DNA of 64,000 bases from an uncultured Actinomycetota bacterium (GTDB taxonomy: Bacteria; Actinomycetota; Actinomycetes; JACCUZ01), in assembly GCA_963794995.1 (NCBI GenBank), contig CAWCFV010000002.1:1332215-1396214 (forward strand). Direction: 5' to 3'. A model generated the notes under the pieces. The model searched no databases. It was not told where the DNA came from and was given only the letters and a program-made list of their open reading frames with translations. A program made the translations under genes and the position numbers. Below are positions 1,476 through 23,413 of this stretch, one piece after another (positions within the stretch are counted from its first letter, which is position 1; each line of letters opens with the position of its first letter).

Positions 1476-1928
1476 ATGGCTCTCTACGCCGCCTACGGCA
1501 GCAACCTGGCCCCCGGCCAGATGCTCCTCCGGGCGCCGCACTCGCCCCTGCGCGGCACCGGCTGGCTCGAGGGCTGGCGGCTGACCTTCGGCGGCGAGGA
1601 CCAGGGCTGGGAGGGCCCGCTGGCCACCGTCGTGGAGGCGCCGGGGCAGCACGTGTTCGTCGCGCTGTACGACGTCACCGACGCCGACGCCCTGAACATG
1701 GACCGGTGGGAGGCGGCGGACCTGGCCCTGTTCACCAAGGTGCGGGTCCGGGTGCACACGCTGGACGGCGAGGTCCTCGCCTGGATGTACGTCCTGGCCG
1801 ACTACGAGGGCGGGGTGCCCTCCGCCCGCTACCTCGGGCTCATCGCGGACGCCGCGGAGGCCGCCGGCGCCCCCGACGACTACGTCGCCGAGCTGCGGGC
1901 CCGTCCCTGCCGCTCCGTCGGGCCCTGA
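1476..1928 (+). CDS. Gamma-glutamylcyclotransferase (AIG2/GGCT-like) family protein
   Basis: N-terminus MALYAAYGSNLAPGQM… carries the YGSN motif typical of GGCT/AIG2-like proteins. About 150 aa with high GC3, in the tail of a longer high-GC ORF. Confidence 0.7.
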   Translation: MALYAAYGSNLAPGQMLLRAPHSPLRGTGWLEGWRLTFGGEDQGWEGPLATVVEAPGQHVFVALYDVTDADALNMDRWEAADLALFTKVRVRVHTLDGEVLAWMYVLADYEGGVPSARYLGLIADAAEAAGAPDDYVAELRARPCRSVGP

Positions 1929-1953
1929 CACCCACCCCCGACCCCGCGCCGAG

Positions 1954-1977
1954 GTTGATCACGTCCACGTGATCAAC
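1954..1977. promoter_or_regulatory. Perfect 11-bp inverted repeat GTTGATCACGT-cc-ACGTGATCAAC (putative operator or bidirectional hairpin)
   Basis: Read directly from the sequence between the GGCT-like gene (stop 1928) and the 2085 ORF. Exact dyad symmetry with a 2-nt spacer and no downstream T-tract. A second 6-bp inverted repeat CCTGAC…GTCAGG (2062–2082) abuts the 2085 start. Confidence 0.45.
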
Positions 1978-2084
1978 CGCCGCCGGACGCGGCGTACTCA
2001 CCACAGCCGGGTCAGGTACGCCGCGTTCGGCGACCGACACCCGGAGTTCTCCAGTCCGAAACCTGACCTGCCGATAGTCAGGGC

Positions 2085-2402
2085 ATGTGGTTGCTGCGCG
2101 ACACCCGCCACCCCGGGGAGGACACCGTCCTCGCCGCGCTGCGCGCGTGCCCCCCGTCCCAGCTCGTCAGCCTGGTCCTGTCCGCGTCGAGCAGCCGCGG
2201 CCGGCCGTCGATCCTGGACGTCCTGCGTGCTGAAGCGGGCGCCCAGCACTGCCGCATCGCCCTCGCCGAGACCCGCGGGGTCGTCGTGCGCTGGGTCGAC
2301 GGCATCGTCAGCGGCTCGGTCGAGGACGTCCTCGCCTTCCTCGACGCCAGCCGCCCCGTGCTCGACCGCTGCCACGGCCGCGCCGAGCTCGCCGCCGCCT
2401 GA
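2085..2402 (+). CDS. Hypothetical protein (105 aa)
   Basis: ATG-initiated ORF with strongly G/C-biased third positions (coding-like). No recognisable motif. Confidence 0.5.
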   Translation: MWLLRDTRHPGEDTVLAALRACPPSQLVSLVLSASSSRGRPSILDVLRAEAGAQHCRIALAETRGVVVRWVDGIVSGSVEDVLAFLDASRPVLDRCHGRAELAAA

Positions 2403-2459
2403 GGGAGACCTCCCTGCCGGCCAGCGGTCCTGTCGGAGGGCGTCGCTAGCGTCGTCGCC

Positions 2460-3266
2460 ATGGCCGACTTCCACCAGCAGGACCTTGCCGGCTCCCGCTT
2501 CGAGCAGGTCCACCTGCAGCGTGCGACGTTCCACCAGGTCCACCTGAACGACTCCCGCTTCGACGACGTCGACCTCACCGGCGCGCAGCTGCGTGACGTC
2601 TTCTTCAAGGACGTGGTCATGCGCGGCGTCGCGTTCGCCGGCGTGCGGATCGACGGTGAGGTCGAGGACCTCACGATCAACGGCGTGGACGTCGGCCCGC
2701 TGGTCCAGGCCGAGCTGGAGCGTCGCGAGCCCGACCTGGCGAGGATGCGGCCCACCGACCCGGACGGGTTCCGCGAGGCGTGGCGCACCCTCGAGCGCCT
2801 GTGGGCCACCGCCGTCGAGCGCGCGCGGCAGCTCCCCGAGGCCGCGCTGCACGAGTCCGTCGACGGCGAGTGGTCGTTCGTCGAGACGCTGCGGCACCTC
2901 GCGTTCGCGACCGAGTGCTGGCTGCACCGGGCGATCCTCGGCGACCCGAGCCCGTGGGCGCCGCTGTCGCTGCCGTGGGACCAGATGCCCGACACCGAGG
3001 GCGTGCCGCGCGACCGCTCGGCGCGGCCGTCGCTCGACGAGGCCCTCGCGCTGCGGCTCGACCGGCAGGCGGCGGTCCGGACCTACCTCGACTCGCTCGA
3101 CGAGCAGACCCTCGCCTCCGACACCGTCGCGGTCGAGGCCCCGGGCTGGCCGGAGCCCCGCAGCTACCCGGTCCGCCGGTGCCTGCTCACGCTGCTCAAC
3201 GAGGAGTGGTGGCACCGCCAGTTCGCGCTGCGTGACCTGGCGGTGCTGGAGGCCCGGCACGCCTGA
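2460..3266 (+). CDS. Pentapeptide-repeat / DinB_2 (DinB/YfiT-like, mycothiol-dependent-isomerase-N-terminal-like) fusion protein
   Basis: The N-terminal ~70 aa consist of A(D/N)LxX-type pentapeptide repeats ([40 protein letters not shown]). The C-terminal part has a DinB_2-like helical bundle signature ([15 protein letters not shown]…W…H). Confidence 0.65.
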
Positions 3267-3333
3267 GGCGCGAGGCGTCGAGCGGGTACGGCTCGCGGCC
3301 CGACCCCGTCGGCCCCGCGCTAGGGTCGCGGCC

Positions 3334-4140
3334 GTGACAGACGCGACGACGGACCCGTACGCCCTCGCCCGCGAGGCGGCCGACCGGCTGCGCGAGGTCA
3401 CCGGTGCCGACACCCACGAGGTGGCCCTGGTGATGGGCTCCGGCTGGGTCCCGGCGGCCGAGATGCTGGGCGAGACCGCCACCGAGGCGCCGGTGACCGA
3501 GCTGCCCGGCTTCCACGCCGCCGCGGTCGCCGGGCACGCGGGGACGTTCCGCTCGGTGGTCGTGGGCGAGAAGCGCGCCCTGGTCCTGCTCGGCCGCACC
3601 CATCTCTACGAGGGCCGCGGCGTGGCCTCGGTCGTCCATGGCGTGCGCACCGCCGTGGCCGCGGGCGCCCGCGTCGTCGTGCTGACCAACGGCTGCGGCG
3701 GGCTGCGGCCGACGTACTCCCCCGGCCAGCCGGTCCTGATCAGCGACCACCTCAACCTCACGGCGACCTCGCCGATCGTCGGGGCGCACTTCGTGGACCT
3801 CACCGACCTCTACTCCCCGCGGCTGCGTCAGCTCTGCCGGGCGGTGGACCCCTCGCTGGAGGAGGGCGTCTACGTCCAGCTGCCCGGGCCGCACTACGAG
3901 ACGCCTGCCGAGATCGGCATGGTCCGCGCCCTCGGCGGCGACCTCGTCGGGATGTCGACCACGCTCGAGGCGATCGCCGTCCGCGAGGCCGGCGCCGAGG
4001 TGCTCGGCCTCTCGCTGGTCACCAACCTCGCGGCCGGCATGACCGGCGAGCCGCTGAACCACGAGGAGGTCCTCGAGGCCGGGCGCGCGGCTGCCACCCG
4101 GATGGGCGGGCTGCTCTCGCAGGTGGTCTCCCAGCTGTGA
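3334..4140 (+). CDS. punA: Purine nucleoside phosphorylase (PNP, trimeric PunA/DeoD-type)
   Basis: GTG start; 268 aa. Family motifs include [19 protein letters not shown] and [15 protein letters not shown]. Translationally coupled (GTGA) to the downstream mutase. Confidence 0.9.
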
Positions 4141-5828
4141 GCCGGACCGACGGCAAGGGCCAGGGCCACGAGCACCGCAGGAGCGCCGAGACCGTCGGCG
4201 CCGTCAGCGTGGCGCAGGCCTGGCTCGCCGAGGACCCCGACCCCGAGACCCGCGCCGAGCTGCAGCAGGTGCTCGAGGCCGGCGACATGGCGGGGCTCGC
4301 CGACCGCTTCGGCGCCCGCCTGGAGTTCGGTACGGCCGGGCTGCGCGGCGCCCTGGGCGCAGGCCCCAACCGGATGAACCGGGTCGTCGTCATCCGCGCC
4401 GCCGCCGGGCTCGCGGCCCACTCGCGGGGGCACGGCGGGACCTCGGTCGTCGTCGGCTACGACGCCCGGCACAAGTCCGACGTCTTCGCCCGCGACACCG
4501 CGCAGGTCATGGCCGGGGCCGGGCTGCGCGCCTCGGTGCTGCCTCGCCCGCTGCCCACGCCGGTGCTCGCCTACGCCATCCGGCACCTGGGCGCCGACGC
4601 CGGCGTGATGGTCACTGCGTCGCACAACCCGCCGCAGGACAACGGCTACAAGGTCTACCTGGGCGACGGGTCGCAGATCGTCCCGCCGGCGGACGCCGAG
4701 ATCTCGGCCGCGATCGAGGCCGTCGGCCCGCTCGCCGGCATCCCACGCAGCGACGACTGGGACGTCCTCGGCGAGGAGGTGCTGGACGCCTACCTCGCGC
4801 GGGTGGTCTCGCTGGTCGCCCCCGACTCGTCGCGGGACCTGCGCATCGTCTACACGCCGCTGCACGGTGTCGGCCGCGACGTCGTGCTCGCCGCGTTCGA
4901 GCGCGCCGGCTTCCCGGCGCCGACGGTGGTGCGCGAGCAGGGCGACCCCGACCCCGAGTTCCGGACCGTGGCGTTCCCCAACCCCGAGGAGCCGGGAGCG
5001 ATCGACCTGGCCGTGGCCGCGGCGGTCGCGCACGGCGCCGACCTGGTCCTGGCCAACGACCCCGACGCCGACCGGTGCGCGGTCGCGGTGCCCGACCCGT
5101 CCGCCGACGGCGGCTGGCGGATGCTGCGCGGCGACGAGGTGGGCGCCCTGCTCGGCGCGCACCTGGTGGCCCGGGACCCGTCGATCACCGGGACCTTCGC
5201 CGCGTCCATCGTGTCGTCGTCGCTGCTCGGCCGGATCGCGGCGGCCCACGGCCTGGACTACCGGGAGACGCTCACCGGCTTCAAGTGGATCTCCCGGGTC
5301 GACGGCCTGCGCTACGGCTACGAGGAGGCGCTGGGCTACTGCGTGGACCCGGACGGGGTGCGCGACAAGGACGGCGTCTCGGCAGCGCTGCTCGTCGCCG
5401 AGCTGGCGGCCACGCTCAAGGTCGAGGGCCGCAGCCTGCTCGACCTGCTCGACGACCTCGCCGTCGAGCACGGGCTGCACGCGACCGACCAGCTCGCGGT
5501 CCGGGTCGAGGACGTGTCGCTGATCGAGGACGCGATGGCCCGGCTGCGCACGACGCCCCCGACGACCCTCGGCGGTCGCGACGTCGAGCGCGCGGACGAC
5601 CTCGCCGAGGGCTCCGAGGCGCTGCCGCCCACCGACGGGCTGCGCTACGTCCTCGCCGACGGCGGACGCGTGGTCGTGCGGCCCTCGGGCACCGAGCCCA
5701 AGCTCAAGGCCTACCTGGAGGTCGTGGTCCCCGTCGGCGGCGGCGACGTCGCTGCCGCCCGACGCACGGCCACGGACGCACTCGCGGGCATCAAGGCGGA
5801 CGTGGGCACGGCGCTCGGCCTGGGCTGA
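4137..5828 (+). CDS. Phosphosugar mutase (alpha-D-phosphohexomutase family; PmmB-like, likely phosphopentomutase role in nucleoside catabolism)
   Basis: Active-site loop [15 protein letters not shown] (phosphoserine loop) plus sugar-binding loops. Same position as Rv3308 pmmB next to the PNP gene. Confidence 0.85.
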
Positions 5829-5849
5829 GACCCGGCGCCGGGCTCAGCC
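5823..5849. terminator. Bidirectional GC hairpin between convergent genes (pmm-like mutase vs cyclase-STAND gene)
   Basis: GGCTGAG(A)CCCGGC|GCCGGGCTCAGCC is a near-perfect dyad. Each arm contains the stop codon of one of the convergent genes (TGA at 5826–5828 and TCA at 5844–5846). Confidence 0.5.
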
Positions 5850-8800
5850 GCCCGACACCAGCTCGGCGGCCGACTCGGGGCGGCGGCCGGCCGGCAGCGA
5901 GATGTGGCGGGCGGGGAGCGGCACCTCGGGGACCGACCGGACGCCGAGCCCCCCCAGGAGGGTGCCGGCCGAGAGCTCCAGGGCGGCCGCGGTGCCGCTG
6001 CCTGCTGTCCGCTCGACCCGGGCCCACTCGTGCAGGGTGACCGCGAGCTCGAAGTCGGCGCTGGCTGCGGTGGCCCGGCCACGGCTGGACAGCAGCATCG
6101 CCAGCCCGGCATCGCGGTCGCCGACCTGGACCAGGGCCAGCCCGTGCAGCCGGTCGAGCATCGCCAGGACGACCGGTATCCCGCCGAGGGCCTCGGCGCG
6201 GGCGGTCGCCTCCCGGACCACGGGCAGGGCCGCCTCACCGTCGCCGCGGAAGACCAGCTTCTCGGCCTCCCGGCCGTCCAGCTCGACGAGGAAGGCGTCG
6301 GCGCCGATCCGCGCGAAGTGGCGCCGCGCCTCGGCGTAGAGCTCGTTCGCGTCTGCGAAGCGACCGGCCCGGGAGGCGACCCGGCCGAGGTTGCTCAGGC
6401 ACAGCGCGAGCCCCACCGGGAAGCGCACCGACCGCCACAGGGCCAGCGCCTCGCGGAAGACCGCCTCGGCCTCGTCCAGCCGGCCCTGGTCGGAGAGGAT
6501 CTCGCCGATGTTGTTCAGCGCGGTGCCGTCCATGGTCACGTTGCCGGAGCGGCGGCAGACCTCGCGGCTGCGCTCGAGGTAGGACCGGGCCAGGTCCCAG
6601 CGCCCCTCGTAGTAGGCGTCGATCCCCAGGTTGTTCAGGACCGTCGCCTGCCCGACGAGGTCCTCCAGCCGCTCGTAGATCGGCAGCGCCTTCTCGCGGT
6701 ACTCGGTGGCCTCGGGGCGGCCGAGGTCGGTGAGCGCCCAGTCGAGCAGGTAGTAGGCGTGGGCGAGGGTCGGCTCGTCCCGCAGCCGCTCGGCCTCGGC
6801 GGCCGCCCGGTGCAGGTAGGGCAGGCTCGCGGCGTACTTGCCCTGCCGGGCCCGGGCCGCGCCGTAGGACATGGTGAGCTGGGCGTGCAGGGCGGCCGCC
6901 GCGGTGGCCTCGTCCCCCCCGGCCGCGGCCTCGTCGAGCACCTTCAGGGCGCGGGTGTACCAGGACAGCGCGCTGCTGTAGCGGCCGGACCGCTCCCGCA
7001 GCCACCCCTCCTTCTTCAGCAGGCCCACCCGCCGCAGCCGGTCGTGCCCGACCGCGCGGCGGGCGGCGGCGAACGCCCGGCCGGCGTCGTCGTAGCGGCC
7101 GTCCAGCTCGAGCACGTCGCCGAGGGCCTCGCCCAGGTCGGCACGGTCCTCCGGGGGGACGTCGGGCAGGTGCCCGGCCGCGTCCAGGGCCCACCGGTAG
7201 AACCGGGCCGCCTCGACCGGAGCAGCGCTGCGCCGGGCCCGCTCACCGGCCACCCGGGCGTGCTGCCAGGCCTCGGCGTGCCGCTCGGCGAAGCGGTAGT
7301 GCAGGGCCAGCAGGTCGACCAGCGACTCGTGGTCGGCCAGCTGCGCGGCGAGCGCGTCGCCGGCCCGGCCGTGCAGGCTGCGGCGGCGCCGGAAGGGCAG
7401 GCCCTCGTACGCGACGTCGCGGACCAGCCCGTGGAGGAAGCGCATGCTGCCCGGGCCGTCCGGGGCGAGGAACCGGCCGATCCCGACGAGCCGCCGCGAG
7501 ACCTCCGCCTCCGGCTGGTCGAGCATCGCGCTCAGCGTGTCCACCTCGAAGCGCGCGCCGAGGACCGCGGCGACCCGCAGCAGCTCACGGTCGGCGCGCT
7601 CGAGCTGGTCGACGGTGGCGCCGATGACCTCCTCGAGCGTGTCCGGGAGGACGCCGAGGTCGGTGCCGTCGCTGCCGGTCGCGACGGCGTCGAGCAGCTC
7701 GCGCAGGAACAGCGGGTTACCGGCCGCCCGCGCCGCGAGCACCGAGCGGGCGCTGGGCACCAGCGGCCGCTCGTCGGCCACCGCGCGCAGCAGCCGGGCG
7801 CTCTCCTCGTCGGAGAGCGGCTCGAGCGCGAGCTCGACCGGCTCGAGGCTCTCGTCCGGGCGCCACCCCCCGTCGCCGGGACGCCGGGAGACGCAGACCA
7901 GCCACGGCCGCCCGGCCGCCAGGGCCGAGACGTGGCCGAGCAGGTCGCCGGTGGCGTCGTCCAGCCAGTGGGCGTCGTCGACGAGCAGCACGGTCGGGCC
8001 GGTCAGCACCCGGCCCAGGAGACGCGCCGCCTGCTGGTGGCGCACCGTGGCCCGGAACTCGGCCCCGAGAGCGGCCACCTCCGGTGTGTCCGGCAGGTCC
8101 ACGCCCAGGATCGTCCCGAGCAGCGGCAGCCACGGCAGGACGTCGGGCTCCACCCGCTCGACGGCCGCGCGCAGCCGGGCGGCCACGGTGGCGTCGTCGT
8201 CGCCCGGGGTGGCGCCCACCAGAGCGCGCAGCGGGGCGCGGACGGCGAAGTACGGCGTCGCCGCGGCGTAGCGCCCGCCCTCGACCTCGAGGACCTCGAC
8301 CCCCTCGGCCGCCCGCAGCAGCTCGCCGACCAGCCGCGACTTGCCGATGCCCGCCTCGCCGGAGAGCACGACCACGCTGCCGCGGCCGTCCCGGGCGCCG
8401 GCCAGCGCTGAGTCGAGCACGGCCCGCTCGCGGTCGCGGCCGACGAACGGCAGGTCGTGGGCGTCGAGGTCCCGTCGACCGGTCGGCCGCCCGACGGCCC
8501 CGGCGACCACCGGGAGCGACTTGCCCTTGACGTGGAAGGGGTCCCGCAGCGCGACCTCGAACCGGCCGCCGACATGGTCGAGCAGGGCCTTGGTCGCGAG
8601 CACCTGGCCGACCTCGGCCTTGCCCATCACCCGGGCGGAGAGGTTGGTCGCGTCGCCCATGACGGCGTACGTGCGGCGCTCGTCGGTGCCCACGTCGACG
8701 GCGAAGGCCCGGCCGCGGCTGGCGCCGGCGCGGACCGCGAGCAGGTCGTGGCCCTCGACGGCGGCACGCAGGGTCAGGAGCATCCGCTCCTCGTCGCCCT

Positions 8801-9749
8801 CGCCCACCCGGGGAGCACCGGCGACGAACAGGATCTTGCCGCCGTCGACGTCGACGTCGGTGGCGAGGAAGGTGACGTCGTGCGCGACGCAGGCGCGCTG
8901 CGCGGCGACGACGACCTTCTCCATCTCGGTGGCGACGGCGTCCAGACCGGCGGCGGCCAGCAGCCGGTCGGTGCCGCGCACCTGGAGGAAGGCCAGGCTG
9001 GCCACCCGGTGCTCGCCGTCCTCGCGACCGGCACTGAGGTGCCGTCGCAGCATCGGCGGGACGCCGTCGGGCGCGCACTGCTGAGGCACCGCGGCCGGCG
9101 TGAGCGGGGGGACCTGCGGCGCCCGCACGAGCAGCCGGGCCCCGTCGTCGTCCGGGCCCAGCAGGCCGGCAGGAAGGGCCGCGGCGGCCGTGGGGCCGAC
9201 CAGGACCTGGCCGCCCACCGCCCGGTTCTCCAGGCCGACGGTGGCCGAGACGACCGGCCCCACGGCGAACAGCTCGCGGTGCGTCTCCCCCAGCAGCAGC
9301 AGGTGCACGGGGCCGGACTCGACCCCGATCGACATCGTCAGGCTGACCCAGCCACCACCGGTGCGGAATCGCCGGAACGGGCGGAGGGCGTCGAGCAGCC
9401 CGGCCGCACCGGCCGCGGCCCGCTGCTCGTGACCCTGGCCGGTGAACAGCAGGAGCAGCGCGTCGCCGCCGAACTTCACCAGGTCGCCGCCGTGGGCGAA
9501 GGCGACCCGGAGCAGCCGGCCGAACACGTCGTTGAGGACGTCGGTGAGCTCCTCGGCCCCGACCTTGCCCTGGCGAGCCAGCTTCTCGGTGAGCGGCGTG
9601 AACCCGGAGACGTCGGCGAAGACGATCGTCGCGTCGAGGGTGCGGCTGCGGGCCTGCGGCTCCGAGGCCAGCCACTCCAGGGCGACACGCGCGACGTAGG
9701 GCGCCAGGGGGTCCACGGACTCCGGACCCGCCACCTGCACCTGTCTCAC
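5844..9749 (-). CDS. Signal-transduction protein with tandem class-III adenylate/guanylate cyclase (CHD) domains, STAND/AAA ATPase and C-terminal TPR repeats; no HTH
   Basis: 1301-aa uninterrupted ORF. The first CHD has metal-binding motifs (FADVSGFT…FGGDALL). The second CHD is degenerate (FLQVRG…). Walker A is VVVLSGEAGIGKSRLV and Walker B is LLVDDAHWLD. The C-terminal ~450 aa are TPR-like helical repeats (YYLLDWALTDLGRPEEA…). Related to mycobacterial cyclase-ATPase regulators (Rv0386 type) but lacks a LuxR HTH. Confidence 0.85.
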   Translation of the reverse strand: MRQVQVAGPESVDPLAPYVARVALEWLASEPQARSRTLDATIVFADVSGFTPLTEKLARQGKVGAEELTDVLNDVFGRLLRVAFAHGGDLVKFGGDALLLLFTGQGHEQRAAAGAAGLLDALRPFRRFRTGGGWVSLTMSIGVESGPVHLLLLGETHRELFAVGPVVSATVGLENRAVGGQVLVGPTAAAALPAGLLGPDDDGARLLVRAPQVPPLTPAAVPQQCAPDGVPPMLRRHLSAGREDGEHRVASLAFLQVRGTDRLLAAAGLDAVATEMEKVVVAAQRACVAHDVTFLATDVDVDGGKILFVAGAPRVGEGDEERMLLTLRAAVEGHDLLAVRAGASRGRAFAVDVGTDERRTYAVMGDATNLSARVMGKAEVGQVLATKALLDHVGGRFEVALRDPFHVKGKSLPVVAGAVGRPTGRRDLDAHDLPFVGRDRERAVLDSALAGARDGRGSVVVLSGEAGIGKSRLVGELLRAAEGVEVLEVEGGRYAAATPYFAVRAPLRALVGATPGDDDATVAARLRAAVERVEPDVLPWLPLLGTILGVDLPDTPEVAALGAEFRATVRHQQAARLLGRVLTGPTVLLVDDAHWLDDATGDLLGHVSALAAGRPWLVCVSRRPGDGGWRPDESLEPVELALEPLSDEESARLLRAVADERPLVPSARSVLAARAAGNPLFLRELLDAVATGSDGTDLGVLPDTLEEVIGATVDQLERADRELLRVAAVLGARFEVDTLSAMLDQPEAEVSRRLVGIGRFLAPDGPGSMRFLHGLVRDVAYEGLPFRRRRSLHGRAGDALAAQLADHESLVDLLALHYRFAERHAEAWQHARVAGERARRSAAPVEAARFYRWALDAAGHLPDVPPEDRADLGEALGDVLELDGRYDDAGRAFAAARRAVGHDRLRRVGLLKKEGWLRERSGRYSSALSWYTRALKVLDEAAAGGDEATAAAALHAQLTMSYGAARARQGKYAASLPYLHRAAAEAERLRDEPTLAHAYYLLDWALTDLGRPEATEYREKALPIYERLEDLVGQATVLNNLGIDAYYEGRWDLARSYLERSREVCRRSGNVTMDGTALNNIGEILSDQGRLDEAEAVFREALALWRSVRFPVGLALCLSNLGRVASRAGRFADANELYAEARRHFARIGADAFLVELDGREAEKLVFRGDGEAALPVVREATARAEALGGIPVVLAMLDRLHGLALVQVGDRDAGLAMLLSSRGRATAASADFELAVTLHEWARVERTAGSGTAAALELSAGTLLGGLGVRSVPEVPLPARHISLPAGRRPESAAELVSGG

Positions 9750-9969
9750 CGGCCACGTCCCCTCGTGCGGGAACCCAGTGTGGCCGCTCGGTCCGGCCCG
9801 CGTCGACCACTTCGGCCCAGGTGGGGCGGATATGCCCCGATGAGGGCAGTCAGATCACCGTCCGGGCGGAGACATATGGCCCGAACGGGTGGTGGCGGAT
9901 AGACCGGGACGGGAGGACGCTCGACGCCGGACGGACCTTGGGGGTCGGGGTCTACAAAGGGGACGACGG

Positions 9970-22321: not shown

Positions 22322-23413
22322 TCAGCCGGCGGCCATGGCTGCGTAGCGGGGCTTGATGACGTCCTCGATGAGCGCGAGCCGCTCGTCGAAGGGGATGAAG
22401 GCCGACTTCATCGCGTTCACCGTGAACCAGCGGAAGTCGTCCAGCCCGTAGCCGAACGCGTCGGCGAGCTGCCTGAACTCGTGGGTCATCGACGTCCCGC
22501 TCATCAGCCGGTTGTCGGTGTTGATGGTCACCCGGAAGTGCAGCCGGCGCAGCAGCCCGATGGGATGCTCCTCGATCGAGGCGGCCGCCCCGGTCATCAC
22601 GTTGGACGTGGGTGCCATCTCCAGCGGGATCCGCTTGTCGCGGACGTACGAGGCGAGCAGGCCCAGCGTGGCGTGGCCGGACTCGTCGACGGTGATGTCG
22701 TCGATGATCCGCACCCCGTGCCCCAGCCGGTCGGCACCGCACCACTGGATCGCCTGCCAGATGGACGGCAGCCCGAACGCCTCCCCCGCGTGGATGGTGA
22801 AGTGGGCGTTCTCGCGCTGCAGGTACTCGAAGGCGTCGAGGTGCCTCGTCGGCGGGTTGCCCGCCTCGGCCCCGGCGATGTCGAAGCCCACGACACCGGC
22901 GTCGCGGTAGCGCACGGACAGCTCGGCGATCTCCTGCGAACGCGCCGCGTGCCGCATCGCGGTCAGCAGCGCCCCCACCCGGATCGGGTTCCCCGCCTCC
23001 CGGGCCCGGCGCTCGCCCTCGCGGAAGCCGGCGTTGACGGCCTCGACCACGGCGGCGAGGTCCAGGTCACGCTCGACGTGCAGCTCGGGGGCGTAGCGGA
23101 CCTCGGCGTAGACCACCCCGTCGGCCGCGAGGTCCTCGGCACACTCCGCAGCCACCCGGGTGAGGGCCTCGGCGGTCTGCATGACCCCCACGGTGTGGGC
23201 GAACGTCTCGAGGTAGCGCTCCAGGGACCCGGAGTTCGCGGCCGCCACGAACCACTCCGACAGGGCGTCCACGTCGCTGGTCGGGAGGTCGGCGTAGCCG
23301 GTCTCGGCGGCCAGCTCGACCACCGTCCGTGGCCGGACCCCTCCGTCGAGGTGGTCGTGCAGCAGGACCTTGGGCATCCGACGAAGGTCATCTGTGGTCA
23401 AAGAGTTGGTCAC
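22322..23413 (-). CDS. add: Adenosine deaminase
   Basis: Metal-binding motifs [17 protein letters not shown] and TINTDN. 363 aa. Confidence 0.9.

Follow-up and report, generated by a model that had tools for sequence, protein, structure and literature searches.

A 64,000-nucleotide stretch of the genome of an uncultured Actinomycetota bacterium (contig CAWCFV010000002.1, positions 1,332,215 to 1,396,214; hereafter the window, with a G+C content of about 74%) carries on its minus strand, at 5844..9749 with the stop codon included, a gene that probably encodes a cytoplasmic nucleotide cyclase of the soluble adenylyl cyclase (sAC, ADCY10) type. The 1301-aa (amino acid) protein, translated from a GTG start, would possess one composite active site, be regulated by its own STAND ATPase and TPR repeats, produce a cyclic nucleotide monophosphate (cNMP) as its output, and form a module with a secreted gingipain-like protease encoded by the divergent neighbouring gene. 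The open reading frame (ORF) is a real gene and not a shadow ORF of high-GC DNA, because its G+C fraction is 0.96 at the third codon position vs 0.52 at the second. More than 120 full-length homologues with 41-87% identity were found; the family is large and bears an existing annotation, "class 3 adenylate cyclase/TPR repeat protein", and within it the protein is unremarkable.

The sequence-only reading of this stretch had proposed a cyclase homology domain (CHD), a degenerate CHD, an NB-ARC/AAA ATPase and TPRs, in this order, and both the Pfam domains and all of the motifs that it quoted were found. Guanylate_cyc matches two stretches of the protein, the best at residues 39-192 (E 5e-15), followed by AAA_16 at residues 434-611 (E 1.6e-22) and by four TPR_12 matches between about 910 and 1150 (E 2e-30), accompanied by TPR_10 and a weak TPR_MalT. 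The motifs, numbered as residues of the 1301-aa cyclase, are FADVSGFT (44-51), FLQVRG (254-259), GEAGIGKS (464-471) and DDAHWLDD (591-598). On the minus strand of the window, the C1-like CHD1 (residues ~35-207) lies at 9129..9647, the C2-like CHD2 (residues ~245-425) at 8475..9017, and the nucleotide-binding oligomerisation domain (NOD) of the STAND module (residues ~434-800) at 7350..8450, in which the Walker A motif GEAGIGKS and the Walker B motif DDAHWLDD are followed by helical and winged-helix parts. The TPR sensor region (residues ~810-1250, at 6000..7322) consists entirely of helical hairpins, as seen from the Pfam repeats and from the secondary structure of an AlphaFold2 (AF2) model with pLDDT >90. 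After the TPRs comes a family-conserved tail motif, (G)LGV...P.VPLP (residues 1267-1279, at 5913..5951), in which the family alignment shows L1268 and V1270 without exception and G1269 almost always; the peptide may serve for autoinhibition or docking. Nowhere is the protein hydrophobic enough to form a membrane helix. Searching NCBIfam gave a partial, sub-threshold match to a TOMM kinase/cyclase fusion (TIGR03903) and an Avs1b match of 15.5 bits, and nothing else.

The two CHDs divide the catalytic residues between them. CHD1 carries the metal-binding aspartates Asp46 (in FADVSGFT) and Asp96 (in KFGGDAL), together with Lys92, and has lost the Asn/Arg pair (GPVVSATVGLEN); CHD2 has lost both metal aspartates (FLQVRG; DGGKILF) and retains Asn369 and Arg373 (in GDATNLSARVM). 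A profile-profile alignment of CHD1 with CHD2 by hhalign places D46 opposite Q256 and D96 opposite K305 at the metal-ligand positions, as well as S168 opposite N369 and G172 opposite R373 at the transition-state positions, so the proposed absence of the metal aspartate from FLQVRG of the second CHD is confirmed. These residues were scored in family alignments of 27 and 58 members and in 64 further homologues from fetched loci. Asp46, Asp96 and Arg373 are invariant in both alignments and occur in 64/64 of the further homologues each, while Asn369 is found in at least 90% of the aligned family members and in 58 of the 64; the reciprocal, lost positions vary among the same 64 sequences. Such a division of catalytic labour is the C1/C2 split of sAC and of the membrane cyclases. 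Since the metal aspartates are present in CHD1 only and the Asn and Arg in CHD2 only, family-wide, and since the AF2 model superposes on the C1-C2 core of sAC, one active site in an intramolecular C1-C2 pseudo-heterodimer, as the sequence-only reading had suggested, is well supported.

Comparison with known structures points to the same type of enzyme. In a single-sequence phmmer search against the PDB, the best match was human ADCY10 (E 1.8e-13), collinear over both CHDs, in which CHD1 aligns with sAC C1 (39-192) and CHD2 with sAC C2 with the order kept. A profile of 27 family members matched sAC with an E-value of 8.7e-33 in two collinear stretches, well above any single-domain bacterial cyclase, and aligned CHD2 with sAC C2 at 341-420 (4oya chain numbering). 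The AF2 model, which covers residues 1-1200 and was built on 58 homologues (pLDDT 91.9, pTM 0.84), shows two CHD folds at 35-207 and 245-425. When this model was compared with the PDB by Foldseek, the top 24 matches were all human sAC, with 460-477 columns and a TM(target) of 0.71-0.75, spanning the entire 460-aa C1-C2 catalytic core; PH0952, the soluble domains of the membrane cyclase AC9, and Avs3 followed below. The two CHDs are thus predicted to pack as in the sAC core. Because the sequence, profile and predicted-structure matches are all collinear over both CHDs, sAC/ADCY10 is the closest known kind.

No helix-turn-helix (HTH) or other DNA-binding family was detected in the cyclase at E<0.1 by Pfam profile search, with NCBIfam searched for HTH as well, and none of 120 listed homologues carries a precomputed HTH family. 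The proposed absence of a C-terminal HTH therefore holds, and a cyclase without a DNA-binding domain points to a cyclic nucleotide as the output. Mycobacterium tuberculosis Rv0386, Rv1358 and Rv2488c are cyclase-ATPase-TPR-LuxR proteins, whose single CHD must homodimerise and whose C-terminus is a LuxR-type HTH. A transcription factor of this type, binding directly to the divergent promoter, would have the AAA_16 and TPR module in common with the window protein, and a divergent arrangement is typical of local regulators. It is refuted by the profile search, so that next to no credence is left for it; the C-terminus is made of TPR hairpins with a short conserved tail, and the protein has two CHDs, not one.

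The C-terminal half is built like a STAND NTPase: a P-loop NOD that contains both Walker motifs is followed by an arm and by a repeat sensor. In the family alignment, G467, G469 and K470 of Walker A and D592 and D597 of the Walker B DD motif are invariant, and the AF2 model matches the STAND-TPR protein PH0952 (6mfv) by Foldseek with an E-value of 1.2e-15 over 748 columns. In the STAND cycle, the closed form holds ADP, and an inducer at the arm or sensor causes opening, ATP exchange, multimerisation and effector activation (PMC6468293). By analogy, the same cycle may act here upon a cyclase as the effector. In the published description of full-length sAC, C1-C2 likewise precedes regulatory regions, among them a predicted STAND domain that has a P-loop (PMC12802110).

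The starts of the cyclase gene and of a giant secreted protein gene are separated by a divergent intergenic region at 9750..9969, exactly the 220 bp that had been read between them. The neighbour begins at ATG 9970 and extends on the plus strand over 9970..16660, with ~2230 aa if read through, as delineated by third-position G+C (GC3) frame plot, tblastn, Pfam and NCBIfam. Its parts are a signal peptide, delta-60/DUF5122 beta-propeller repeats in the N-terminal part, a gingipain-like core, Ig-like domains and a C-terminal PxKF domain (NCBIfam NF038114, at 16292-16654 on the plus strand). The gingipain-type core (Peptidase C25, clan CD; 13400..15997, plus strand) comprises a pro-domain-like part, the catalytic domain and beta-sandwich domains, and has the fold of clan CD; its catalytic dyad is formed by a His at 14528-14530 (VNAHYDAY) and a Cys at 14648-14650 (FTIGCHAGLN). 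The neighbour is a giant secreted cysteine protease zymogen of the gingipain (C25) type. The window copy has a signal-peptide-like N-terminus, and a Sec signal peptide was recognised in 71/106 full-length protease relatives by a crude hydrophobicity test. Counted as cluster representatives at 50% identity, the family of the conserved ~870-aa protease core has 1458 members at E<=1e-30 and, with the threshold relaxed to E<=1e-3, 2784; most are 1800-4266 aa long.

The protease gene of the window carries an apparent +1-nt frameshift on the plus strand at 11715..11725, placed at 11718-11722 (gcc ggg ccg gta...; ortholog ...PGRYY...). The GC3 frame plot shows one coding frame at about 9970-11700 and another at 11700-16660, and the frameshift was placed by tblastn comparison with L001, a relative with 87% cyclase identity, in which the protease ortholog is a single intact 2212-aa gene. 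The copy of the 70% relative L162 has two frame changes, near 7612-7630 and 6444-6458; that of L163, a 50% relative, is intact, as in L001.

The linkage of the two genes, on whose conservation in relatives the sequence-only reading had made its proposal depend, was examined by counting the co-occurrence of both genes with domain-specific tblastn, and it is kept across phyla and gene arrangements. The close relatives (L001, L162, L163 and L164) came from a separate search for contigs encoding cyclase homologues; their contigs are long and all preserve the divergent pair, with cyclase identities of 87, 70, 50 and 45%, respectively, and the genes around it are entirely different in L163 and L164. 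Among protease-seeded metagenome loci, a near full-length cyclase homologue is present in 39/80, and the fraction depends on how much flank is available: 31/39 of loci of at least 12 kb, 16/18 of at least 15 kb and 6/7 of at least 20 kb carry it, so that roughly 80-90% of the assessable protease loci have an adjoining cyclase. In 53 two-gene loci, 30 pairs are divergent, 14 are tandem with the protease first, 7 are tandem with the cyclase first, and 2 are convergent. Loci with both genes belong to Actinomycetota, Chloroflexota and Proteobacteria, and the pair is kept at 33-57% protein identity. The protease is nearly always accompanied by the cyclase, and of the two families that of the cyclase is the wider. 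One metagenome locus, L127, has two cyclase homologues (1621-5157 and 15153-18446) on either side of one giant protease gene.

It may be argued that the adjacency has no function and was merely inherited as synteny by close relatives, for the window and its two closest relatives have identical flanking genes and most cyclases of the wider family have no protease neighbour. Against this stand the persistence of the pair amid different flanks, the four relative arrangements, the three phyla with their low protein identities, and the high proportion of protease-seeded loci that carry a cyclase, so that mere synteny is very improbable. Since the adjacency outlasts rearrangement, changed context and divergence across three phyla, it indicates a functional link between cyclase and protease.

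After the partner gene, the commonest neighbours are cNMP-binding proteins, found in the fetched flanks of 26/161 loci, in addition to a Crp-type factor in L163; some stand-alone proteins with a cyclic-nucleotide-binding domain (CNB) directly adjoin the cyclase. The types comprise stand-alone CNB, Crp-type transcription factor, CNB-patatin, CNB-SpoIIE (PP2C), CNB-MFS, and a 2xCNB-C39 peptidase-ABC exporter, and the loci include L011, L029, L042, L079, L087, L093, L100, L109, L114, L122, L161 and L163. Furthermore, in P0031 (1612 aa, 47% identity) a cNMP-binding domain is fused onto a cyclase-STAND-TPR homologue, which suggests feedback by the product. The recurrence of CNB neighbours supports a cyclic nucleotide as the output of the family.

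In the window, the pair is flanked by nucleoside-catabolism genes, with a purine nucleoside phosphorylase and a phosphopentomutase-like gene at 2593-5828 and DeoC and an aldehyde dehydrogenase at 16717-19155. Because these flanks are common to the window, L001 and L162 and absent from L163 and L164, the cyclase-protease pair behaves as a unit inserted into a nucleoside-catabolism cluster. In L164, a phage-type integrase and an AbiTii-domain gene adjoin the pair (14301-15233 and 22374-23315), the sole hint of mobility or defence seen.

This surrounding bears on a resemblance to Avs/NLR-type sensors that had been noticed in the layout. An anti-phage system of such kind would recognise a phage protein by its TPRs, oligomerise through the STAND module and let the cyclase make a Pycsar-like alarm leading to abortive infection, perhaps with the protease as the effector. 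The order of effector, STAND and repeat sensor would suit it, as would Avs3 (8dgc) among the Foldseek STAND matches (E 4e-11), weak PADLOC matches to PycC (E 2e-12), the patatin or other effector-like domains on the cNMP-binding neighbours of some relatives, and the genes that adjoin the pair in L164. However, PADLOC returned for the cyclase only the generic PycC, matching CHD1 only, and TPR, without any Avs or other defence model, and for the protease no model at all; the NCBIfam Avs1b score of 15.5 bits is to be read against a cutoff of 1500. The flanks in the window, L001 and L162 are housekeeping genes, a Sec-secreted giant partner of surface type is ill-suited to killing the producer cell, and a systematic survey of defence STANDs contains no mention of cyclases (PMC13581612). 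The resemblance therefore comes down to the generic STAND layout, and an anti-phage role is considered highly unlikely.

Instead of a defence alarm, a regulated sAC-type cyclase coupled to a secreted protease is favoured, and the following mechanism may be proposed. CHD1 would supply the metal aspartates D46 and D96, and CHD2 the transition-state residues Asn369 and Arg373, while the symmetric counterpart of this site is degenerate and probably has a regulatory role. If the module works as in other STAND proteins, a ligand bound at the TPRs or arm would promote the exchange of ADP for ATP and the opening or oligomerisation of the NOD; the opening of the NOD would relieve inhibition of the cyclase core, and cyclic AMP (cAMP), as the presumed product, would rise. 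The cyclic nucleotide would then be read by cNMP-binding proteins encoded elsewhere in the genome, which in relatives are often right beside the cyclase. The dominance of the divergent arrangement suggests that the cyclase is most likely a dedicated cytoplasmic sensor or regulator for the production or use of the protease. Its input could be, for example, imported products of proteolysis or the protease precursor, and its signal could pass via cAMP and a Crp-type factor; by such a route the cyclase may control the protease, a direction that we infer; control in the opposite sense is conceivable. A wider proposal is advanced tentatively, with rather less than even confidence: the cyclase and the giant protease would constitute an undescribed, widespread two-component signalling module, in which the STAND/TPR half senses a protease-tied cue, such as the precursor, the pro-domain or peptide products, and converts it into a cyclic-nucleotide signal.

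Several observations weigh against this reading. Substrate-specifying positions are non-canonical, as the position of sAC Thr405 is Ala362 here and Ser or Thr in 46/64 relatives, and the purine-binding Lys of CHD2 cannot be placed with confidence from sequence alone; for all members of the family, the nucleotide product may be cAMP, cGMP or another cNMP. The bicarbonate-binding Arg176 of human sAC aligns with Val171, and no Arg is conserved there, so that an sAC-like regulation by bicarbonate is doubtful; Lys92, equivalent to sAC Lys95 as the other residue of the bicarbonate site, is conserved, and non-mammalian sACs are likewise without the bicarbonate residues (PMC12867704). A hidden Markov model built from the cNMP-binding neighbours of other loci found none in the 64-kb window or in L001. 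The likeness of the STAND-TPR half to the C-terminus of animal sAC is taken from published description only, and the structural matches include no solved structure of that C-terminus. As for the partner, the protease is located outside the cytoplasm and the cyclase within it; any physical coupling must therefore be indirect. The 220-bp intergenic region, read by eye, shows no convincing CRP-type TGTGA-N6-TCACA site or palindrome; it has blocks conserved with the L001 ortholog, in a two-sequence footprint that is too shallow to interpret. The frameshifts in the window and in L162 may be assembly errors or real decay and pseudogenisation. Cyclase-seeded loci, a set of 80 genome loci among the matches listed, with identity of at most 43% and from many phyla, have the giant gene adjacent in 10-19/80. 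Finally, some metagenome loci are near-duplicates and not all independent, by which the linkage counts overstate independence somewhat.

The first of these points lend themselves to another explanation, in which the CHDs are catalytically dead or merely bind nucleotide and the protein is a STAND-TPR scaffold that acts via protein-protein contacts. Besides Ala362, the Lys without a clear place and the lack of an encoded cNMP receptor in the window, the structural matches include 6yii, a class III cyclase-like ATP-binding protein of Pseudomonas aeruginosa (E 2.7e-10). Yet sAC matches far better than 6yii, and across more than 120 diverged sequences the two metal aspartates, the Asn and the Arg vary hardly or not at all, in just the complementary pattern that one working site requires. 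With the cNMP-binding neighbours recurring in relatives, and one CNB fused to a cyclase, dead CHDs are regarded as unlikely, and an active cyclase with a single composite site is retained as the more probable reading.

No ligand or function is known for the STAND and TPR part of animal sAC, and a study of 2025 came upon no regulator that would be specific to the full-length mammalian sAC isoform. If the cyclase-protease pair does act as a module, bacteria would offer a genetically tractable system for what the STAND-containing C-terminus of sAC senses, and the gene linkage to one protease, along with the varied cNMP readers of relatives, provides concrete hypotheses on the input and output of such cyclases. 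A large family of giant C25-type proteases, as yet uncharacterised, has also come to light in Actinomycetota, Chloroflexota and Proteobacteria of soil and sediment. A limited literature search found no description of a cyclase and C25 module or of the giant C25 family, no dedicated paper on bacterial tandem sAC-like cyclases, and nothing on PxKF or delta-60 giant proteins in such a context; the conserved cyclase-protease module appears undescribed.

Among known systems, full-length animal sAC (ADCY10) is the closest match, in sequence as in structure, throughout the catalytic core. It likewise has two heterologous CHDs in a single chain, C1 preceding C2, with one active site, the metal aspartates in C1 and the Asn/Arg in C2, a Lys95 that corresponds to Lys92, and a soluble character; its C-terminal P-loop STAND module is likened by description (PMC12802110). 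Bacterial "sAC-like" cyclases have been known since work on Chloroflexus (Kobayashi et al. 2004, as cited in PMC11006738). The bacterial cyclase differs from animal sAC in the replacement of Arg176 by Val171 and of Thr405 by Ala, in its length of 1301 aa vs ~1610 aa, in that no equivalent of the haem domain or of the autoinhibitory motif was identified in it, and in its gingipain-like gene partner, which has no counterpart in the descriptions of sAC. The mycobacterial cyclase-ATPase-LuxR regulators, which had been taken as the nearest comparators, share with the window cyclase an N-terminal class III CHD, an AAA_16-type STAND NTPase, TPRs and an actinobacterial setting. The window protein has two complementary CHDs and no HTH, whereas those proteins have one CHD and an HTH and are for this reason a poorer match; animal sAC and its bacterial relatives take their place.

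Other families resemble parts of the system. The STAND-TPR ATPases MalT and PH0952 have the same NOD, arm and TPR sensor, with a presumed inducer-dependent ADP/ATP switch (PMC6468293), and differ in their DNA-binding effector, which is a nucleotide cyclase here. The TOMM kinase/cyclase fusion (TIGR03903) matches residues 332-854, from CHD2 through the NOD onward, with an E-value of 1.5e-48 and the same order of cyclase, STAND and TPR; its score is 165 bits vs a cutoff of 706, and the window cyclase lacks a kinase domain, has a second CHD beside the first and is without TOMM genes in its vicinity. Pycsar, in which a single-CHD PycC sits beside a cNMP-binding effector, does not fit, as the PycC matches are weak and restricted to CHD1, and no cNMP-binding ORF is found in the window. 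The neighbouring protease resembles the gingipains RgpB and Kgp in its conserved His/Cys dyad, its secretion and the Ig-like domains that follow. In contrast to the gingipains of Bacteroidota, to which it shows 10-14% identity, its core forms part of a ~2200-aa protein that also has beta-propeller repeats and a C-terminal PxKF domain, and it occurs in Actinomycetota, Chloroflexota and Proteobacteria, where it is paired with a cyclase.

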